A stretch of DNA of 64,000 bases from contig CAWBKB010000005.1 of the NCBI GenBank assembly GCA_963789265.1, positions 288,001-352,000 on the forward strand. Reading direction: 5' to 3'. The DNA is from an uncultured delta proteobacterium. GTDB lineage: Bacteria; Desulfobacterota; Desulfomonilia; Desulfomonilales; Desulfomonilaceae. Below the pieces are notes generated by a model, which did not search any database, was not told where the DNA came from, and saw nothing but the letters and a program-made list of their open reading frames with translations. This document shows positions 16,574 to 56,030 of this stretch, piece by piece; position 1 is the first letter of the stretch; every line of letters begins with the position of its first letter. Position numbers and translations under genes: made by a program.

Positions 16574-16830
16574 GTACGGAACCGGTCCGGTCCAGGCAAT
16601 CGGTCGCAGGCGAGCACTGTGCCTTGCTCCTGCGTTGCCTGAAATGAAATGTTGCGCTGCTGGTACTCATTCACTCCTCGCAATGACAATCTCTTCCCGC
16701 ACGCAATTGAATGCTTACCGCTGCTGAGCAGGTTTCATTTTTCCGCGCTGAAAATTACTGCGTACAGCGTTCTGCGGGACTCGAGTCGACAACCTGTGCG
16801 ATCGCGAAAATTGGGCGAATACGGATTAAC

Positions 16831-26931: not shown

Positions 26932-28269
26932 TCACTCGACCTTCTTTCCCACGAGCGAATGCTTCAAACCTCGACTTATCTTCACTTCCACGAGATCTCC
27001 TTCTCGGAGATCGTTCGTCGGCTCCAAATTCACTACCTTGTTCGTACGCGTGCGGCCAAAGGGTTGAGCTGTTTTAGGTTTGAACCCTTCGATGAGAACC
27101 TCTTCCATCGTGCCTTCCGCCACCAAGTGATAATCCTCGGTTATCCGGTCCTGAAGCGCGTGAACTCTTGACAAGCGCTCAGCCTTCACTTCTTCGGGAA
27201 CTTGGCCCGGCAGGTTACGGGCCGCTGTCTCTGGTCTGACGGAATACTTGAACGAAAAGATCTGATCGAACCGTATCTGCTCCAAGGCTGCGAGGGTCCC
27301 GGAAAAATCCTCTTCAGTCTCACCGGGGAAGCCGACGATCATGTCCGCAGTAACAGCAACCGATGGGATTGCTTCCCGCAACAGGCTAATCTTATTCAGG
27401 TAGTCGGCAAGGGTGTAACCCCTTTTCATTGCGCGCAGGATCCTGTCGGAACCGCTTTGTAGAGGAAGATGGATGTGTTCGCATACCGATTTCAGACGGG
27501 CCATGACGGATACCAAATCAGCATTGAAGTCACGAGGGTGGGATGTGGTGAACCGAATCCTCTGAAGGCCCTGGATGCCGTCCAACTCTGTCAGGAGACG
27601 AGCAAATGAGTTGCCTCCTCGTCGTAGATCATTGCCGTACACGTTCACGTTTTGTCCGAGCAGGGTGACCTCCCGGACGCCCTTTGCAACCAGAGCATTG
27701 ATTTCCTCTATGACCTCATCCGCCGGACGGCTCTGTTCGGGCCCGCGAGTGAAGGGCACGACGCAGTACGAACAGAAGTTCGAACAACCCTGCATTATCG
27801 TCACGTACGAACAAACATGGCTGGAGCCTTTGCAGGGCGCGGGAAAATGCAGAGAATCCATATTCGAGTGGAATTCGGTGAGCGCGAAGCGTTCGCGGGC
27901 GTTGTTCACGCGGTCTAACACTGAGGGCAAATCCGCAATGCAATGGGTTCCGAGAACTGCATCGAGGTGGCTTACCTTTTTGAGCAGCTTATCCTTTTCC
28001 TGTTGGGCCACACATCCGGTGACCACGGTCACCATTCCGGGATTCTTCAACTTCAGGGGCTTCAATTTTCCGAGAGCGCTATATAGCTTGTGTTCTGCTT
28101 TTTCCCTTATGGAACAGGTGTTGACGACTACCACTTCGGCGCCTTCCGGGGACGATGCCTCCGTCAGGCCGAGCTTTTCCAGCATCGCGGCCATCTTTTC
28201 AGAGTCGTGCTCGTTCATCTGACAACCATAGGTTTCGATGTAAAAAGTCCCTTTAGACACTCTATTCAC
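26932..28269 (-). CDS. miaB: tRNA-i6A37 methylthiotransferase
   Basis: TYGCQMNEHDSE, NTCSIREKAE, GCSNFCSYCVVP, RIRFTTSHP, TRAM domain. Confidence 0.96.
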   Translation of the reverse strand: MNRVSKGTFYIETYGCQMNEHDSEKMAAMLEKLGLTEASSPEGAEVVVVNTCSIREKAEHKLYSALGKLKPLKLKNPGMVTVVTGCVAQQEKDKLLKKVSHLDAVLGTHCIADLPSVLDRVNNARERFALTEFHSNMDSLHFPAPCKGSSHVCSYVTIMQGCSNFCSYCVVPFTRGPEQSRPADEVIEEINALVAKGVREVTLLGQNVNVYGNDLRRGGNSFARLLTELDGIQGLQRIRFTTSHPRDFNADLVSVMARLKSVCEHIHLPLQSGSDRILRAMKRGYTLADYLNKISLLREAIPSVAVTADMIVGFPGETEEDFSGTLAALEQIRFDQIFSFKYSVRPETAARNLPGQVPEEVKAERLSRVHALQDRITEDYHLVAEGTMEEVLIEGFKPKTAQPFGRTRTNKVVNLEPTNDLREGDLVEVKISRGLKHSLVGKKVE

Positions 28270-28521
28270 CGATGTCTACAGATTTCTCTCGGGCGTTTGC
28301 CCGTGCATATCAACAAACTTCAGACCTCAACCTTTAGCACAGGGTCCCCAATATGAATAGACTTGACTTAATTCTTGAGTACGAGGAAGAGCGGCTGAAT
28401 GCTCGTCAAACGCCGCGTGCGAAAATTTTGCACTCCAAGTGTGTCGACATGTGCCGTGATCGCGGTGCCGCTAGCGTCGGTCGCACTCGGCCGAATAATG
28501 CAAGCTGCCTGAAATCCAGGC

Positions 28522-28552
28522 AAAAAAATAGCCCTCCTTTTGCGGGAGAGCT
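28522..28552 (-). terminator. Intrinsic terminator
   Basis: AGCUCUCC-CGCAAAA-GGAGGGCU then AUUUUUUU. Confidence 0.75.
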
Positions 28553-28582
28553 GAGGGTATGGTTAAAGGAGTCGTTATTCAC
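28522..28582 (-). ncRNA. Candidate ~60-nt sRNA or terminated leader
   Basis: Bounded by a sigma54-type promoter and an intrinsic terminator; contains ACUCCUUU. Confidence 0.55.
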
Positions 28583-28592
28583 TCTTATCTTA

Positions 28593-28609
28593 AGCAAGTC
28601 TTGTGCCAA
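28593..28609 (-). promoter_or_regulatory. sigma54 (-24/-12) promoter
   Basis: TTGGCAC-AAGAC-TTGCT fits TGGCAC-N5-TTGCW; it also forms the 17-nt spacer of TTGACT..TAAGAT. Confidence 0.7.
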
Positions 28610-28670
28610 AGTCAAGAGACCTGCGGCCGGCTTTATGACCGCTCACTTGCTCGGGACATCTTCGAGTTTA

Positions 28671-28812
28671 TGTCATTGCGAGGAGTCAATGGTGGGATAG
28701 GCTTCCAGCCTGTCCATTATGGATGACGGGCAGGATGCCCGTCCCACCGGCAATCTACGTCGTTGAAGGAAAAGATTGCTTCGTCCCGCGGGACGCAGGA
28801 CTCGCAATGACA
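28671..28812. repeat. Composite nested REP-like element
   Basis: Outer TGTCATTGCGAG/CTCGCAATGACA; inner GGTGGGATAGGCTTCCAGCCTGTC...GACGGGCAGGATGCCCGTCCCACC; TCCCGCG hairpin at 28784-28800. Confidence 0.85.
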
Positions 28813-28912
28813 ACTCTTGCCGCCAGTAACTAAAGGATTACCCGGCTTATGAATTTCTATTCGCAGCGGTCGTTCACAAGCGTGTCCTTTCCGATCCCGT
28901 AACTTCGAAAAG

Positions 28913-29848
28913 CTACAAAAGTTGGTCCACTTCTTTCACCAAGTTCTTGACTGCTTGGACGGATTGTTCGAAAGCTGACCGCTCCTGCGCGTTTAGTTCC
29001 AATTCCACGACTCTTTCCACGCCGGCCGATCCGAGGATGGCCGGCGCCCCGACAAATATCCCCTTTTCGCCGAACTCGCCGTCCAGATATGCTGCAACAG
29101 GTAAGAGTCTCTTCTTGTCCAGCAGAATCGACCGGGCCATCTCTACTGCCGATGCGCCGGGAGCATAGGACGCGCTTCCCGTTTTCAGTAGATTGACGAT
29201 TTCCGCGCCACCTTGCCGAGTTCTCTGAACGATCTCCTCGAGCCTCTCCGCGGTGACAAAGTTGGTTACCGGGATCCCGCCGACGAAGCAATAGCGCGTG
29301 AGAGGCACCATAGAGTCTCCGTGTCCCCCCAGGACCAGCGTGTGGACATCTTCAACCGACACCCCGATTTCCGCTGCCAGGAAGCTCCTAAATCGGGCCG
29401 TGTCCAAAACTCCCGCCATGCCGGCTATTCGTCTGGGATGGAAATGTGATTTTTTCCACGCGGTGTATACCATTGCATCCAGCGGGTTGGAGACTATGAT
29501 CAATATGGCGTTCGGGGAATACGTGGCAACCTTCTCTGCAACATCGCCCACTATCTTGACATTCGTTTTGAGAAGATCATCTCGGCTCATACCGGGCTTT
29601 CTGGCAATCCCTGCGGTAATTATTGCCAGATCGCTCCCTTGGGTCGCTTCGTAATCATTTGTGCCGGTTACAGTAGTATCGCGTCCCAGCACCGGCGTGG
29701 CCTCGAATATATCGAGCCCCTTGCCCTGCGGAATTCCTTCGAGGATATCCACCAGCACTACATCGCCCAACTCCTGGGCCGACACATAGGCGGCAACCGA
29801 TGCTCCGACGTTGCCGGCACCCACGACGGTAATCTTCTTTTTAGGCAT
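28913..29848 (-). CDS. mdh: Malate dehydrogenase (LDH-like)
   Basis: [38 protein letters not shown]. Confidence 0.96.
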
Positions 29849-36563: not shown

Positions 36564-37062
36564 GGGATTTCCGTTCGGGTGCCCCGATTTGCCGCGGGCA
36601 GTCGTACTGTTTCCGGTTTTCACGACAGGATCATAGAGGTCGCCGACGCTCAGGTCAAGCGCTGCATGCGAGTTTCCGCACCCGGCGAAGTTCTTCAGAC
36701 GCCACATGAACTGCGTTGAGAACCGCGCTGGGCACCCGGGCACGGAATTCTGAGCCAGTTACAAAAAGGCCGCAGAGACCTAATTTCGATGGAATTCATA
36801 ATGGGATTGACTGCCGTTTCTCCCTGGCGCATTTCGCTGAACCCTTTGCAAACCCGCGTGGCAACAGACGAAAGCCGAATCCAAGATTCCGCTCAACCCT
36901 TGTGCCAGCTATTAGAGATACTCATAAGAAATTAGATCAGGTTTATTAACAACTTAAAACTATCTCAGGACGCATCTTCAATGTTTTTGAAGAATTTACT
37001 TGACATAATGTCGATATTGAATAATTACGTCGTCCCAGGACATTCGATCAAGGAGGGAGGGT

Positions 37063-38206
37063 ATGGTGATAATAAAGCCCTTTAAGGTATTGGTTTGTCT
37101 TGCGATTATCTTAACGTTCACCAGCAACCCAAGAGGATGGGGGTATAGCAGCCCTGACCTTTCAGGCGGCGTCCAAGGCGATGCTTTGTCTGCTGAACCT
37201 GCTCCGCCGCCCAGTCGGCAATACCGTTCTCCATCCACGCCAGTGGTTCATTCACATAGCACTCACCGCGCAGTGAGGCGGACGACGCGTCATCGAGTGA
37301 TCGAGTCCGCCCCGGTTTATAGATCTCAACAAGTGGTCTCTACTGCTCCGCCGAGCTACCCACTGCCGCGGCCAACTTCTACTCCCCCGATGTACCAGGG
37401 ATATGGCTTGTTTCAACAGGGTGTACCCCTTGGACCAACTGCCTGTCGCCCCCGCGGACCTACTATGTTCCTGCCAAGGATCGGCTGTAAGCAGTTCCAG
37501 CTCGATGCGGCACTCTGGTATGCGCACCTTGACGGGAGCAGCATCATCTACGGCACAGACTTTCTGGGCCTGCCGGGAACGGAGCTTGATCTTCACAACA
37601 ACCTCGGTCTAAGCGCTCATCAGTACATACCTGAATATTCAGCAAGATGTCAGCTTCGGCCCAACTGGGGCATTGAATTCTCGTTCATGCCGATTCGGTT
37701 CAGGGACAATTCTACCCCGGTTAACCCATTCTTCTTCGGTTACGCCTTATATCCTGCATTTGATCCGATTCTGACCCAATGGGATAGGTACATATACCGC
37801 TGGGACGTGATTTATAACTGGTTCCAGGCTTGCCATGCGGTTTCCGGCATATTCGCCGGGTACAGCCTATACGATGACAAGCTGACGGTGAGTGACGACT
37901 TTCAGAGCCGTAGTCGATCAACGGGCTTCGGATTGGCGTACACGGGCATGAGCATCGAGAGAGTCATACGCAATTTCTGTGGAGGGACTGCATCTTGCAA
38001 TTGCAGGTGGTCTGTGCAGTTTCTCGAGGGATACTTCGGTTGGGACGGCTATTGTGCCGGACGGCTGGCCGTACCAATGCAGAAAGGGCGCTTCGGTTAC
38101 ATCGAGGCAGGTTGGAGATGGATCGTCCTTCGAGCGCGACTATCCGTCCAACGAGGACAAGACCAGTCTGGACGGACTCATCGGAAGGGTAGGACTTGTC
38201 TTCTGA
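37063..38206 (+). CDS. Hypothetical Cys-rich outer-membrane beta-barrel-type protein (paralog B; +1 indel at about 38130)
   Basis: Signal-like N-terminus, Pro/Arg linker, QLRPNWGI, GRFGYIEAGWR, corrected end LDGLIGRVGLVF. Confidence 0.75.
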
Positions 38207-38276
38207 GCATCTGAGCTCTAATGGATGCCGAGGAGACCGGAGGTTGGGGAATACTACGAGAATGAAGGGAAGGGGC

Positions 38277-40843: not shown

Positions 40844-43800
40844 TTAAAAATGTAGCAGTTTCTTCCACGCGGACGGAGTCTTGATGCCCGGGTCGTCTGT
40901 GTCACTTTTGCCGGCATTAAGATCTGTACCTTACTTTCCAATTTCCCATGAGGATGAAAGGCCCCCAATAAAAGGGATGGCTCGTGCTCGGATCCTTCAG
41001 AAGGGTAAGCTTGGCTTGGCGCAACGCTTCAGCCTTGGAGCCTTTCTTGAGATTGCGGTACATTTCTATAAACAGCCGTGCCGTGCTTTCGTCGTTCACC
41101 TGCCATGTGCTCAGGATTACCGCATCGGTTCCTGCGAAGAGAAACGCTCGGGAAAGGCTGAGTAGGCCGTTGGCCTCACCGGGGTTCCACTTTCCCGGAG
41201 ACAGGCAAGAGGAAACCACCACAAGATCGGAATTGAGCTTGAGGCCAAAGACTTCTCCAAGTTGGAGGAAACCGTCATTTTCTCTGTCACCGAAAAGCGA
41301 AAAAACTATCGCCGGCTGCTGCTGCAATCTACCTACTCCGCTGAGAAGCAAACCGTGGGTGGCGAGATGAATGTATTTGTAGCGACTCAGGTCGGCCTTC
41401 TTGAAGAGCGTTTCAGTGGCTTGGGCCCCGAGGTACGTCTGCGTAGGCCCCCCGATTATCTTCACAATTTCGGAGATCTCCCGGCGAGCCCCTGGCAACG
41501 GCTTTAGTTCCGATCCTCTTGATCCGGAAGAATCACCGGCCAGCGAACTTATTAGCTTCTCGGCACCGGGGTTGAGCTTCCGCTTCTTTTCTTCATCCCG
41601 ATAAATCGCATCTCCAAAAGCTACCAGATTCCAGCCGGGAACACGGTCACTCTTTCTTGCTCGAAGGCTGGAGAGCACGGAGACGGAAGGGGCATAAGCG
41701 AATGCATACTTCTCCAACAAATACGACGGGGGGTCCTTTGCGGACCAGAATCGTTTGTCCGCATGTTCCTTCGAGTCAACGAGGATTTCAAAGGGGAGTG
41801 CGGCAAGCGGTCCGTGCGGAATCACCACTACGGTTTTCTTTCCGGCAAGGAAATATTCTAGCGGTTTGATCAAGTAGAAGTAGAGACGATACGCGATCGA
41901 AGGGTCCCAGTTGCTTTGCGTATCAGCGTGGCGCAAGGGTCTCGTTAGAAGGTCGATATCCCTTTCCAAGTCCTTGCTGGAATATTCCACGGAATAGGTG
42001 TGGAACCGGTGCTTATCCAGGGCAAATATGTACGTTTCTGCTTCTGGTTACCATGAACTCCAAGATTGCTTCGTCGGGATCAATCACGTCCTTCTGGAGC
42101 TGGTGAACGGAGAGTGGCCTTGGATACCGCATCTCCGCATACGCGGGATATTCTTTGATTAGACGCTCTTTCAGGCTCGCGAATGCTCTTTCTTTGGCCC
42201 GACGCTCGTCGAGCAGCTTCTGGATTTGTGACTGCTCGGGCTTTCCGTTGGATAGTACCTCTGCGAAGCGCGCGTTGAGTTTTCGCAAACTAAGCCTCAG
42301 GCTTTTCTCTTTCACGAGCAAATCTTGGGGTAAGTCTGAAAAACGGTCCACATTGATGCGCGATAAGGTGTTCTCGAATTCCGCGGCCTTCAACTTTTCT
42401 ACGATTCTCAGCGCCTGATTGTCATACGCGCCTTCTGGATCTTTTTTCGCGAGAATCATCAGTACGCGCAAGGTGGTCTCAAAAAGAGCTGTTTTGCCCC
42501 CAAAGATAAAGTTGTCCTCGTCGGACTCTTCGATTATGTCAGCCTCCATGGCTTCAAGAATGGTGATGGCCTTCTTGTATGCCTCAAGCGCTTCGCCGTA
42601 GCTCCGCTTGCCTTCAAGAGCCCTACCCATGATAAAGTACGCTTTCCACAGCATGCTGCGATCTTCGGATGCATGGGCTATCTCGAAAGCCTTTTTAAGG
42701 TCCCCGACAGCTTCTTCAAAATTCCCGAGAATGGAAGTTACCAGAGCGATCTGGAGCAGATTTTCATCAACCCCTCGTTGATCGCCGAGTTTCGTTCGCA
42801 ATTCTTGAGCGCTGCTGTAGTGATCGAGTGCAATGCGCGGTCGTCCAAGAATTTGGTAGGAGGTTCCCATACGAGTCAGTACCGCGTGCTTCGGCGCGCT
42901 CATCCTTGGTTTCCCGCGCGAGGTTCAACGCTTTCGTCTGATATTTGAGTGCGCCTTCGACGTCCCCCAATTTGGTTAGGATGTCGCCCAAGCGGACCAA
43001 TTCACGCTTTTGCATTTTGAGATTGTTCGCGTCAGAGTCAACCCTCAGAGCGTCTTCAATGAACTCCTTAGCTTTGGCGTATTCGTCCATTTGGCAATAA
43101 ACATTGCCGATACGCGCATAAATGCGCCCAAGGGCAGCGTCGTTTCCGGGTACTTGAGCCATGGCCAGGGACTTGTAATAATACTCCAGCGCGCGCTCTA
43201 GGTCCCGGAAGCCCTCGTAAATTTCGCCGAGGTAGAACTCGAGGTCTCGGGATTGGGAAGGGGGGACGCCAAGTTCCGATCTTAGGTCCAGGGCTTCGTG
43301 GAGGCTGTGAAGGGCATTTTCATAATCTTCGGTCTTGACCTGGATCACTCCGATGCCGCCCAGCGCCCATAGTTCCCCCTTTCGATCGCCTTGCTCCTTC
43401 ATGGCGGCCAACGTCTCTCGAAGCAGAGAAAGGGCCTTGCTGTACTGCCCGGAATCCTCAAGGACAGACGCCATTTTCAAATGAATGGAAGAAACTAATT
43501 TGGCGTCTTCAATTTGGCGGCCCATATCCAGCGCTTGCTTTAGCAGTGACAAGGCCTTGGGAGAGTTCCCTTTTGCCCGCTGAAGCATCGCGAGTTCTGC
43601 CAGAATCGCCACATCACCACGTGGGTTTCGGATCCGTTTGTTCGCCTTTTCAGCTTCTCCAAGGGTCTCTGTGGCATTCTGCAGATCGCCCCTGGCCAGG
43701 TACAGTCTTCCCATGCTCACCAGATCGGTAGCCGTACCGCGGCTGTCCTGGATTTCACGGTGCAATTTGAGCGCATTGGTTAATTTCTCCAGGGCCGCGC

Positions 43801-45956
43801 TTTGAGATCCCCGCGCGGCGTCCACATTTCCCAGATTCGTCAAGACATCTGCTTCGCCCCTTTTGTCGGACAAGTCCCGATATACCGTAAGAGCCTGTTC
43901 CAGGTCTTTCTGAGCCTCGGCCAGTCGATTGCGGTGCCTGAGAAGGTTCCCTATGTTGGCAAGAGTAGCCGCGTAACCTCTGCGGTCGCCTATCCCCTTA
44001 CGCATTTCCTGAGCTCTTCGGAAGTTCCGCATAGCTTTTTCTTGATCACCCAAGCTCTTGAAGTGGACCCCAAGGGCTGTAAGATCGCTCCCCTCCCCAA
44101 AACGGTCCCCCATAGTTCGGTGTTCGGTCAGGGCCTGCCCTAGCAGGTTGAAGGCCTTCTCCCGCTCTCCTCTCAATTCGTAAATCAAGCCCATGAGATT
44201 GTCGCAGTCCGCGGCGCCTCTACGATCATTTGTCTGCGTGAAATCCTTGCGGGCTTGGGCCGCGTCCTGCAAAGCCTTTTGGTAGGTCTCTCTATCAAAA
44301 CGGTACCTAGCCACCGCCAGGCCCAACAGGCTCTTAGAACGGCGGTTTATGCCGGCCTTGGCATCTTCCACTGCCTCTTTGAGAACCCTCGAAGCAGATT
44401 GCGCGTCTCCTGTACTTGTGTAGATTTCTGCCAGAAGCATCCTGGAGAGAACGCTCTGATTTCTGTCATTGATCTTCTTCGCCGCTGCAAGGGCCCGCTG
44501 GCCGTATTCCAAGGCTTTCTGGACAAAGCCTTGCCGATAATAGGCCTCACCTATCAAATTCATGGCAGCGGCTTCGCCGCCACCGGAAGATAATTGCCGA
44601 AATTGCTGCAGGGCTTTTCCTCCCAGTTCCAGGGCTGATTCAAATCGGGATCGGTCCAGTTCCAGCTTCCCTAGCAAGAGACGCACGCGCTCTGCCATAA
44701 TGCGTTCCCCTGCTTCTTCGTAACGGTTGAGGGCATCCCTGAGATTCTTTACTGCTTGGATGAGCTTTCCCTGGTTATAGGCATCCATCCCTTTGACCAC
44801 TAAAGGGAGCGCAGTGGCTGCCGCGTCGTTTTCTCCGTCCATCATGGATCGGCCTTCTTCCACAGCCTTTCGGGCGGCTGCAAAGTCTCCCTTGGTCTGA
44901 TCCAGATAAGCTATCCTAAACAGGGTGTTTCCCAACTTCTTTGGACGTTTAAGGTTTCGGTAGATGCTTTCCGCTTTTTTGAAATTGGCACTGGCGGCCT
45001 TATAATCGGACCGTGAAACTTGGATCTCTCCGATAAAGACGCTTACTCTTGCAACGGATTCATTGTCCCCCGCTTTCGCGTACATATTAAGGAGTCGGGT
45101 GTATGTGCTGATAGCCTCGGGGTCATGGTGGAGTCTCAGGTAAGAGGCTGCCATGTCCTCAAGCAGCTTTGGCATTTCACCAGCTTCAGAATTGGGGATG
45201 ATCTTGAGTGCCGATTCAAATGATTTCAAAGCCTGGGCATAGTCGGATTGGGCCATTAGTATTCGGCCGGCAAGAAGATAGTCGAGACTTCGGGCCTGAG
45301 CGTTTCTTGGTTGCAAGATTTATTTTAATGGCACGGTTAATATATCCTAGGGCCTTACGGTCGCGGCCGAGTTGGTGAGCCATGCGGGCTGCGCCCCCGA
45401 GGGCCGCAGCCATGAGTTTTTGATCCGAGACGGCAGAGGCCCTTTTTAAGGCAAGCTCGTAAATTTCCAGAGACTTTTCGTCCTCCGCTGTCTTTGCCAG
45501 TTTGCCTGCCTTTGTCAGCAGGCCGGCGATACCCTCGGCCTTACTCGATTCGGCCGGTTTTGAAGTATTTGTGGTATCAGGCTTCTTCGCCTCTCCCTTT
45601 TCTTGGCTCACACTACCGGGCTCTTTGCCCCCGGCGGATTCACTGGCATTCACCTTCTGTTTAGGCGGAGAGATCATTCCCGCCGGCGGGATGGGTTGCG
45701 AAGACTTCCCCTGAGTGGTCTGCTTTGCAGCCTTCGACGGCTGGTCGACCGAGTGATGGGGCGTATCCCTGGGCGTATCGAACTTGCTTTCGCGGGCCAT
45801 CAGCGCTTCAATAGGAGTTTCTTTGAAAGCGGAGACCCCATTCGCCTGGGCAAACAGTAGAGACGATCCGGAAGCGTAGGAGGCGTACGAAACTGCGACG
45901 AGCATAATAGCAATCGCTCCGGAAATCAGAAGGCGAGTCTTGAATGGTTCGATCAT
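40844..45956 (-). CDS. Large secreted TPR-repeat + CHAT (caspase-like) protein, split by 3-4 +1 indels
   Basis: Signal-like N-terminus, long TPR array, CHAT motifs IPHGPL..LPFE, LPGA..E, IHLATHG, LVVVSSC, FLFAG, WQVND, HPFYWGPF; indels at about 45304, 42882, 42036 and possibly 40919 (otherwise the gene ends at 40917). Confidence 0.88.
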
Positions 45957-55739: not shown

Positions 55740-55937
55740 CTGAAGCTAAAGAACGATGAACGCAATTGGAATAAGTTCGCGGCCCGCATGGGTCAAACGG
55801 CTGCGATTTCGTTCGGTGAAGTCGCACCCTGCTTTGATGTTTTCGAGTTGGTTTGTGCGTGCGACTGGAGTCCGGCTTTGTGCCAGTACCTGTCAATGCT
55901 GTCGTGAATATTCGGTGTAATTAAAGGAGGATGGGTT

Positions 55938-56030
55938 ATGGGAAGGTTTTGCCTCTGGGCATTGGCCATCGGTTTGTGCCTATGCTTTGCGCTTGACAGA
56001 GGAGACAAGAGAAAAGCAGAATTGGGATAA
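55938..56030 (+). CDS. 30-aa signal-peptide-like ORF (small protein or gene remnant)
   Basis: AAAGGAGG 7 nt before ATG; MGRFCLWALAIGLCLCFALDRGDKRKAELG*. Confidence 0.45.
   Translation: MGRFCLWALAIGLCLCFALDRGDKRKAELG

Follow-up and report, generated by a model that had tools for sequence, protein, structure and literature searches.

Introduction

The small RNAs (sRNAs) Qrr1-5 of Vibrio depend on sigma-54 and LuxO, and MicA, RybB and MicL are sigma-E-dependent envelope sRNAs of Enterobacteria. Here we describe an element of a comparable kind in a 64,000-nt stretch of DNA from an uncultured delta proteobacterium of the Desulfomonilaceae (assembly GCA_963789265.1, contig CAWBKB010000005.1, positions 288,001 to 352,000 of the forward strand), which is called the window throughout. 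The element lies on the minus strand between mdh and miaB and consists of a sigma-54-type promoter, a short unstructured stretch and a terminator hairpin with a run of U. Comparison with related genomes suggests that it is a stand-alone sRNA gene of ~61 nt, one of four paralogs in its genome, and that the RNA probably acts in trans as a sigma-54-controlled repressor of translation.

The layout resembles that of the Qrr RNAs in several respects. Both groups consist of short, paralogous, multi-copy sRNAs, every copy having its own sigma-54 promoter and, putatively here, enhancer sites that serve a single activator. A single-stranded region that hardly differs among the paralogs and a Rho-independent terminator are common to the two groups. 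Both occur in genomes encoding Hfq and pair, here by prediction, at ribosome-binding regions. However, there is no kinship in sequence or structure: a search of positions 27500-29500 against Rfam gave 0 matches at E<=10, Qrr included, and the RNA described here has one hairpin whereas the Qrr RNAs have several stem-loops. The lineage differs as well, the predicted targets are envelope proteins instead of quorum-sensing regulators, the activator gene is not adjacent, and at one locus the putative enhancer lies 3' of the RNA gene. With MicA, RybB and MicL the proposed system would share an alternative sigma factor, a short Hfq-type sRNA and a conserved 5' seed acting at or near the start codons of envelope mRNAs. 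Unlike them, it uses sigma-54 and not sigma-E, so that it needs an enhancer as well as an ATP-dependent activator; the RNAs are not homologous, and most of the predicted targets are small Pro/Cys-rich secreted proteins.

Two further systems bear on the comparison. In the part of their study used here, Kazakov et al. (2015, PMC4641369) describe noncoding RNAs (ncRNAs) of Desulfovibrio vulgaris Hildenborough that are driven by dedicated enhancer-binding proteins (EBPs), one of them under an envelope-stress regulon (DVU1419), and rank Desulfomonile tiedjei first in relative EBP number. The two cases have in common that they come from sulfate-reducer-type 'Deltaproteobacteria' with very many EBPs. 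According to the same part of that study, the D. vulgaris ncRNAs adjoin their own EBP genes and are confined to the Desulfovibrionales, whereas the family described here was found solely in genomes labelled Desulfomonilaceae; the two are set apart by description and not by sequence. GlmY and GlmZ, as presented in the portion of Göpel et al. (2011, PMC3045617) cited here, are likewise homologous paralogs with sigma-54 promoters, which overlap sigma-70 promoters in some species. In contrast to the present family, they are much longer RNAs and form an activator and decoy cascade on glmS. A sigma-70 overlap is also seen in the window, but it is not conserved in the family (5 of 32 copies of the window's paralog type). 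In the open-access literature we found no account of this Desulfomonilaceae sRNA family; searches on sigma-54- or RpoN-dependent sRNAs returned enterobacterial GlnZ only, and those on deltaproteobacterial small RNAs returned myxobacterial reviews.

Results

A conserved family of sigma-54-type sRNA genes

On the minus strand the element reads TTGACTTTGGCACAAGACTTGCTTAAGATAAGA-GTGAATAACGACTCCTTTAACCATACCCTC-AGCTCTCC-CGCAAAA-GGAGGGCT-ATTTTTTTG. The promoter pattern TGGCAC-N5-TTGCW has its single exact match in the 64 kb (both strands) at this place; the expected number is 0.05, and 5 of 100 shuffles yield one match. If the C of the -12 GC is counted as -12, then +1 is G28582, and the predicted transcript, GUGAAUAACGACUCCUUUAACCAUACCCUC-AGCUCUCC-CGCAAAA-GGAGGGCU-A-U7, ends at 28522 after ~61 nt. 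It is laid out as a 29-nt unstructured stretch, an 8-bp hairpin (five G-C pairs, loop of 7) and a T-rich tail. An earlier note, made from the letters of the window without database searches, had read a sigma-54 promoter, a start near 28582 and a hairpin here, and we found all of these elements in the places it gave. The terminator scan gave one terminator-like site in 1.5 kb against a shuffle mean of 1.4, which is chance level when taken alone. Motif counts by themselves do not show that the element is more than chance; it is because of its conservation that we regard it as such.

The genome carries four paralogs: the window copy on contig C5 (type 1), C3:702962-703023 (type 2), C1:1227312-1227372 (type 3) and C1:1544575-1544635 (type 4). 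A DNA search with a 151-nt query gave matches in 22 of 24 genomes of the window's family (Desulfomonilaceae in public records), many of them with two, and in 0 of 16 genomes of a sister family in the same class. A covariance model, R1, was then built on 48 type-2 and type-3 sequences. It recovers all 79 distinct transcripts and matches the window copy at 28581-28522 with 50.5 bits (E 2.6e-10). Across the class, R1 matched 66 of 69 Desulfomonilaceae genomes, with 1-6 copies per genome, compared with 0 of 52 genomes of the sister family; the three Desulfomonilaceae genomes without a match are 73-85% complete. The earlier note had named conservation in relatives as a way to check its proposal, and the element is indeed conserved there. 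An exact core pattern, ACAACGACTCCT-N0-2-AACCATACCC, was scanned over one genome per species for 185,579 species. All 84 stretches found lay in records titled Desulfomonile, Desulfomonilaceae or Desulfomonilales or bearing broader or older labels, namely delta proteobacterium, Syntrophaceae, Syntrophales, Thermodesulfobacteriota and, for three metagenome-assembled genomes (MAGs), 'Pseudomonadota'. MAGs labelled D. tiedjei are among the carriers. From these searches, the sRNA family appears to be confined to one bacterial family.

The promoter is the most regular part upstream of the RNA. All 94 distinct copies gathered from all loci have GG at -24 and GC at -12, in the forms TGGCAC, TGGCAT or TGGTAC-N5-TTGC or GTGC. 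Between this GG and the core there are 29 nt in 69 of the copies; 19 copies have 28, four have 30, and 27 and 31 occur once each. The spacer and flanks around the two elements vary freely. The RNA opens with ~30 nt, (G)AACAACGACUCCU(0-2 nt)AACCAUACCCUC, that hardly change among the 79 distinct transcripts, and alignment places the conservation of the promoter-to-hairpin stretch far beyond that of the mdh 3' flank. A promoter kept in every copy at a fixed distance from the RNA body supports, as far as sequence can tell, an independently transcribed noncoding RNA of ~60 nt of sigma-54 type, which was the central proposal of the earlier note. Its statement that the element holds no open reading frame (ORF) needs a qualification. 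A 69-aa frame with a TTG start (28406..28615, minus) does cross the element, without a Shine-Dalgarno (SD) sequence; because the 0-2-nt length variation of the core among copies breaks this frame, we take it as noncoding, and no conserved frame exists.

The hairpin varies in sequence and keeps its pairing. Its arms occur as AGCUCUCC/GGAGGGCU, AGCCCUCC/GGYGGGCU and AGCAAUCC/GGAUUGCU. In a model-guided alignment 95.5% of the cells were paired and five of the eight pairs had changed on both sides. None of 500 shuffles reached the observed values, and slid controls were paired at 32-56%. Folding of the four paralogs of the genome with ViennaRNA gave 29-30 unpaired nucleotides, one hairpin and a U-tail in each case, with -12.2 kcal/mol for the window copy. 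Within the unpaired region, ACUCCU is present in three of the four paralog types and absent from type 4. The type-4 copy (plus strand), which starts CAACAACGUAUAUAAUCCAUACCCUUCUUAGC, is divergent and has its own TGGCAC-N5-TTGC promoter and upstream boxes. Since it lacks ACUCCU and keeps CCAUACCCU, the patch facing start codons (see below) is the common denominator of the family.

The copies stand in unlike surroundings. Type 2 directly follows rsmB in 28 of 34 type-2 loci scanned (55 are in the collection), while type 1 has miaB downstream in 15 of 27 loci scanned and mdh upstream in 13 of 27, the window being additional to these. A few type-1-like copies are flanked by other genes. The recurrence of identical RNA bodies amid unrelated genes speaks for action in trans, and base pairing in trans, one of the two roles that the earlier note had offered, is on these grounds the most likely mode. 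By the comparisons above, we take the element to be a genuine and conserved gene for an sRNA of sigma-54 type, and the family to which it belongs to be new.

Two observations on the loci may be added. The main paralogs adjoin RNA-modification genes, miaB (tRNA methylthiolation) for type 1 and rsmB (16S rRNA methylation) for type 2; this neighbourhood may be coincidental, both genes being stable housekeeping neighbours. On the contig of a relative (loci L023 and L101), two type-2 copies stand in tandem ~210 nt apart, each with a -24/-12 promoter and a terminator, as if the sRNA gene had been duplicated locally.

Complementarity of the 5' region to the starts of secreted-protein genes

Exact complements of the 33-nt 5' region were collected from the window's own genome (12 Mb counted). 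The longest ones outside the sRNA genes measure 16 nt (C7:65900-65915), 16 nt (C7:66477-66492) and 15 nt (C3:882255-882269), followed by 12 nt at C3:882972-882983 and 11 nt at C5:325057-325067, which is window 37057-37067. For any one 15-mer, ~0.01 matches are expected in 12 Mb. All five complements fall on GGAGG-(0-3 nt)-GAGGGU-AUG-GU, that is, on SD sequence, spacer and start codon, and the seed AACCAUACCCUC is complementary to GAGGGU-AUG-GUU, over the start codon. The earlier note had assigned the seed to an anti-SD sequence. ACUCCU is indeed widespread among the paralog types, but the best and most conserved complementarity belongs to the neighbouring AACCAUACCCUC, which faces the start codon and not the SD. 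Two other 12-nt complements were treated as chance: C5:113115 lies inside a 915-aa ORF, and C1:658364 lies at a stop/start junction with no ORF of at least 100 aa listed behind it.

The genes behind the first four complements form two tandem pairs and encode Pro/Cys-rich proteins of 124, 165, 130 and 156 aa with signal-peptide-like N-termini. The fifth gene (window 37063-38214, plus strand) encodes 383 aa, also with a signal-peptide-like N-terminus. Searches of Pfam and NCBIfam assigned none of these five proteins to a family. The leads from Protein Atlas were weak, reaching no more than 0.88 for the 165-aa protein and, for the 383-aa protein, 2 of 30 matches to DUF481/OMP_b-brl clusters. In genus relatives, too, the target motif of the 37063 candidate and the type-1 sRNA are ~9 kb apart.

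The complementary leader recurs with the sRNA. Of 24 Desulfomonilaceae genomes, 23 contain GGAGG-N0-3-GAGGGTATGGT, with 2-7 occurrences per genome; none of 16 sister-family genomes contains it, and the reversed pattern gave 0. Twelve listed hits read GGAGGGCTGAGGGTATGGT, which is the antisense of type-1 sRNA genes, and were discounted; all 23 genomes retain others. The 40 distinct leaders (30 loci) fall into four groups that are unrelated outside the block GAAAGGAGGAU(U)GAGGGUAUGGUYAAR.

A further candidate encodes an omptin-family outer-membrane protein (C5:41509-42507; PF01278, 4.1e-11, above the cut-off). Its start, GGU-AUG-GUU-GUCCG-AGGAGUCGU, would pair with both halves of the seed. Orthologs are present in 22 of 24 Desulfomonilaceae genomes and in 0 of 16 of the sister family. 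In 13 of these 22 the start carries GGUAUGGUU or GGTATGGTT, and AGGAGUCGU or AGGAGTCGT occurs in all seven genus members and in none of the other 15 orthologs. Cofolding with the full-length window sRNA put the free-energy difference (ddG) between -17.8 and -26.8 kcal/mol for the four small genes and at -22.5 kcal/mol for the omptin-like gene, compared with a background of 600 sampled SD+ATG sites with mean -6.7, standard deviation 3.4, 1st percentile -15.5 and minimum -21.0.

The earlier note had also pointed to a 9-nt complement, TTAAAGGAG, over a ribosome-binding site at 55921-55929, and had allowed that it may be chance. The complement is present, and its ddG of -18.2 passes the 1st percentile of the background. 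On the other hand, the ORF behind it has 30 aa and the leader is rare, its exact 19-mer being found in 2 of 69 other Desulfomonilaceae genomes; by chance alone, about one 9-mer of this kind would be expected in 128 kb of sequence. The leader, AAAGGAGGAUGGGUU-AUG with its ATG at 55938, resembles the target cassette, and its matches with at most two mismatches are mostly the related cassettes AAAGGAGGATGAGGTATGG and AAAGGAGGATTGGGTATGG. On this sequence evidence, 55921-55929 is a possible target site.

Several other starts are of interest. Among the GGGTATGG sites there are more (G)GGU-AUG-GU starts with signal-peptide-like N-termini (C7:389987, C3:482523, C1:1318128 and others), as well as AAAGGAGGAUUGGGU-AUG-GUC, whose leader is conserved within the genus. 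The regulon may exceed the six candidates. In one relative (G021), a covariance-model match to the sRNA (C152:42560-42615) lies ~1 kb from the omptin-like gene (43536-44501).

The sigma-54 system and the enhancer-like boxes

The earlier note had suggested looking in the genome for rpoN and hfq, and both are encoded. rpoN is single-copy (one match to PF04552, 204.9 bits), and there are 43 matches to Sigma54_activat (PF00158), corresponding to ~40 EBPs. Type-2 copies have two upstream boxes at fixed positions, ~-149 and ~-107 from the -24 element, with the consensus aaGTGCGAAAAAAwTT(c)nC(r)c (also written GTGCGAAAAAAwTT..C.C). Similar upstream boxes accompany the type-3 and type-4 copies. With a weight matrix made from 73 boxes upstream of type-2 copies, most type-1 copies showed no upstream box. 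Matches were instead found 3' of the RNA and in the opposite orientation, at +118..+155 and/or +285..+300. At a threshold of 15 bits, 20 of 32 type-1 copies have a box at +90..+330, three have upstream boxes and nine have none. The window belongs to the first group, its box standing past the end of the RNA and ahead of miaB. Over the own genome as a whole, 33 boxes reach at least 15 bits, or 0.0027 per kb per strand, from which ~0.04 would be expected over the 7.4 kb covered here; control flanks totalling 28 kb gave three matches. From the shared box we infer that one activator may serve all paralogs. A site for integration host factor (IHF) between enhancer and promoter was considered and dropped: no more than 5 of 56 type-2 copies contain the strict consensus WATCAANNNNTTR, and it is absent from all copies of types 1 and 3.

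Only five sites in the own genome reach at least 19 bits, one at the type-2 sRNA and another at C3:656023. The latter falls in a locus (L155, C3:655660-656045) where two boxes of the same type, 42 bp apart, lie upstream of a further TGGCAC-N5-TTGCT promoter, TGGCACGACCATTGCT (C3:655914, minus). This promoter is followed by a ~240-nt leader containing ACCCUCUUGGCAC and an ORF of ~95 aa (MTSVRKIDNL...), without a match to the covariance model. The locus probably belongs to the regulon of the same activator.

Features of the locus

The features of the window are collected in Table 1. The first gene beyond the sRNA is miaB (UPF0004, Radical_SAM and TRAM domains), with a GTG start at 28269, 253 nt beyond the U-tract. 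On the other side mdh ends at 28913, and lptE and leuS are also among the neighbours, further upstream. Between mdh and the sRNA promoter, in the window and its closest relative only, sits an inverted-repeat element whose 12-nt arms are 100% complementary and 118 nt apart. Its arm occurs 322 times in the genome, 121 of these as adjacent opposite pairs with arms ~60-120 nt apart, and further arms lie in the window at 16677, 55443 and 55518. This dispersed element looks like a miniature inverted-repeat transposable element (MITE) or a repetitive extragenic palindrome (REP).

Table 1. Positions of the predicted sRNA gene and associated features in the window
Feature	Position	Strand	Basis or remark
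Sigma-54 promoter TGGCACAAGACTTGCT (TGGCAC-N5-TTGCT, -24 and -12 elements)	28593..28608	-	sole exact match in the window; elements kept in 94/94 copies
Sigma-70-like promoter (TTGACT-17-TAAGAT), uncertain, possible basal	28587..28615	-	consensus scan
Predicted sRNA transcript, type-1 paralog	28522..28582	-	covariance model R1 and fold
Single-stranded seed AACGACUCCUUUAACCAUACCCUC (patch 1 ACGACUCCU, patch 2 AACCAUACCCUC)	28553..28576	-	alignment of 79 transcripts
Intrinsic terminator hairpin AGCUCUCC-CGCAAAA-GGAGGGCU	28530..28552	-	terminator scan and family covariation
U7 terminator tail, expected Hfq-binding 3' end	28522..28528	-	sequence; 6-10 T after the hairpin in all copies
Upstream-activating-sequence-like box GTGCGAAAATTTTGCACTC	28417..28435	+	16.5 bits; 3' of the sRNA gene, 5' of miaB
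Candidate target site GGAGG-GAGGGU-AUG-GUG	37052..37068	+	11-nt exact seed complement over the start codon
Possible target from the earlier note, UUAAAGGAG-GAUGGGUU-AUG and 30-aa ORF	55921..55940	+	sequence, cofold
Dispersed inverted-repeat element, not part of the sRNA unit	28671..28812	.	arms TGTCATTGCGAG / CTCGCAATGACA

Discussion

We consider it fairly probable that the element is a stand-alone sRNA gene whose product represses translation in trans under sigma-54 control. Transcription would start when sigma-54 RNA polymerase binds the -24/-12 promoter and one EBP recognises the GTGCGAAAAAAwTT..C.C boxes, which would act from upstream at the type-2 and type-3 loci and from 3' of the RNA at the window locus. 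The hairpin and U-tract would end transcription, leaving the 29-nt unstructured 5' part as the presumed regulatory surface. The invariant AACCAUACCCUC would pair with (U)GAGGGU-AUG-GUU(AAA) on mRNAs, joined in some targets by ACGACUCCU, and the duplex over the start codon, within the ribosome-binding window, would block initiation, probably with the help of Hfq. The predicted targets are the two tandem Pro/Cys-rich pairs, the omptin-like barrel and perhaps the 383-aa protein at 37063, so the physiological role may be to turn off a set of envelope proteins when the sigma-54 signal is present. The mechanism is most likely ordinary start-codon occlusion.

A number of results weigh against this interpretation. 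The ddG background sample may contain the targets themselves, and the value for the 37063 candidate, -13.8 kcal/mol, is within the background range. When 11,625 sites sharing a 7-mer with the seed were ranked with RNAduplex, the best proposed target came twelfth; ahead of it were the sRNA genes' own antisense and a number of duplexes rich in loops. Over the genome as a whole, GGGTATGG shows no enrichment (181 found, 185 expected). The target leaders were selected by the pattern itself, and their SD and other parts are conserved too; part of the leader conservation may reflect orthology or translation efficiency instead of sRNA pairing. Co-occurrence is also imperfect, with one Desulfomonilaceae genome (82% complete) having sRNAs without the target motif and another (73% complete) having the motif without an sRNA match. 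As to control, none of the 43 Sigma54_activat matches adjoins any of the four sRNA genes, and in five of six genus relatives the type-1 copies have no box of at least 15 bits in the stretches scanned.

Other explanations of the same element were weighed. The least credible, to which we give next to no chance, is that the sigma-54 motif is accidental and the hairpin merely terminates mdh transcripts, so that no separate RNA exists. It draws on the shuffles that produce the motif in 5 of 100 cases, on the one terminator-like site expected per 1.5 kb, and on the hairpin being the first terminator after mdh. The comparative data already contradict it: the motif stands at its fixed distance in all 94 copies, including those not downstream of mdh, the promoter-hairpin stretch is far better conserved than the mdh 3' flank, and the 142-nt repeat element parts mdh from the promoter while leaving the unit undisturbed. 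The other role offered by the earlier note, an attenuator for miaB, would make the RNA a cis leader, with the sigma-54 promoter driving miaB and the hairpin allowing controlled read-through, for example through pairing of CUCCUUU with its 3' arm. We regard this as very unlikely. In its favour, miaB follows the type-1 copy on the same strand in the window and at 15 of 27 loci, an enhancer-like box stands between the two, and the window's CUCCUUU is able to pair with the AAAGGAG made up of loop and 3' arm. That pairing, which the earlier note had recognised correctly for the window, is however not conserved: it requires AAAGGAGGG, which only a few copies have, the majority of type-1 copies showing GGCGGGCU or GGUGGGCU instead. 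Nor does the attenuator role fit the loci after rsmB and elsewhere, where the same RNA body likewise has a promoter and a terminator to itself and the genes downstream are unrelated or on the opposite strand. Moreover, the terminator is strong (8 bp, U7-U10) and ~250 nt from miaB, and the 5' region is conserved far past what an anti-terminator needs and matches distant gene starts.

The remaining two accept a real RNA. In one, it is made mainly from the overlapping sigma-70-like promoter with the sigma-54 motif secondary, giving a constitutive sRNA or a dual promoter as at glmY/glmZ. The site, on which the earlier note is silent, agrees with the consensus at 9 of 12 positions, and 8 nt separate the end of its -10 from the conserved core. 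Other copies in the genus also have TTGAC immediately before TGGCAC, and the weakness of enhancer boxes in five of six genus relatives would fit. Nevertheless, one such site was found in the window where 0.8 was expected, shuffled sequence yields a similar number, and a site in the window's register is limited to 5 of 32 type-1 copies and missing from types 2 and 3, whereas every copy has the sigma-54 elements; this explanation seems distinctly improbable, if less so than a cis leader. Somewhat better placed, though still unlikely, is an RNA that is sigma-54-driven but titrates a protein (Hfq, CsrA-like or Crc-like) or another RNA, or uses its 16S-like CUCCU to act on ribosomes. Near-invariance extends over all 29 nt of the 5' region, where a typical seed has 7-12 nt; this region opens with AAC-AAC repeats and holds three C/U-rich patches, and the energy ranking did not pick out the targets. 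What speaks for pairing with mRNAs instead is that perfect complements of 15-16 nt lie exactly over the start codons of several unrelated leaders where ~0.01 is expected, that these complements co-occur with the sRNA across the family, and that the fourth paralog retains the start-codon patch alone. A CsrA sponge would further be expected to have GGA in its loops, and there is none.

The preferred reading, trans-acting repression, invokes no new principle, since the proposed mechanism is standard for bacterial sRNAs. A broader version, towards which we remain slightly more doubtful than inclined, is that the sRNAs and their targets form a co-evolved, lineage-specific module: up to six sigma-54 sRNA paralogs and the leader cassette GAAAGGAGGAU-GAGGGU-AUG-GUYAAR, set before several unrelated and likewise lineage-specific secreted proteins (the tandem Pro/Cys-rich ones and the omptin-like barrel), would silence envelope proteins in response to one signal, the enhancer having moved downstream at the mdh-miaB locus.

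The Desulfomonilaceae are organohalide-respiring and sulfate-reducing anaerobes whose density of sigma-54 activators is, by the part of PMC4641369 used here, among the highest known. Small-RNA regulation in this family is almost unexplored, and the results provide it with a testable post-transcriptional circuit comprising a promoter, an enhancer motif, a seed and a short conserved list of predicted targets. The enhancer motif can be used to find the activator. The family would be an independent example, from a distant phylum, of the Qrr layout of several sigma-54 sRNA paralogs with one seed. If the broader version is true, the mdh-miaB locus would be a natural case of a bacterial enhancer lying downstream of the gene it serves, and in these organisms one signal, passing through one enhancer-binding protein, could silence a whole set of envelope proteins.

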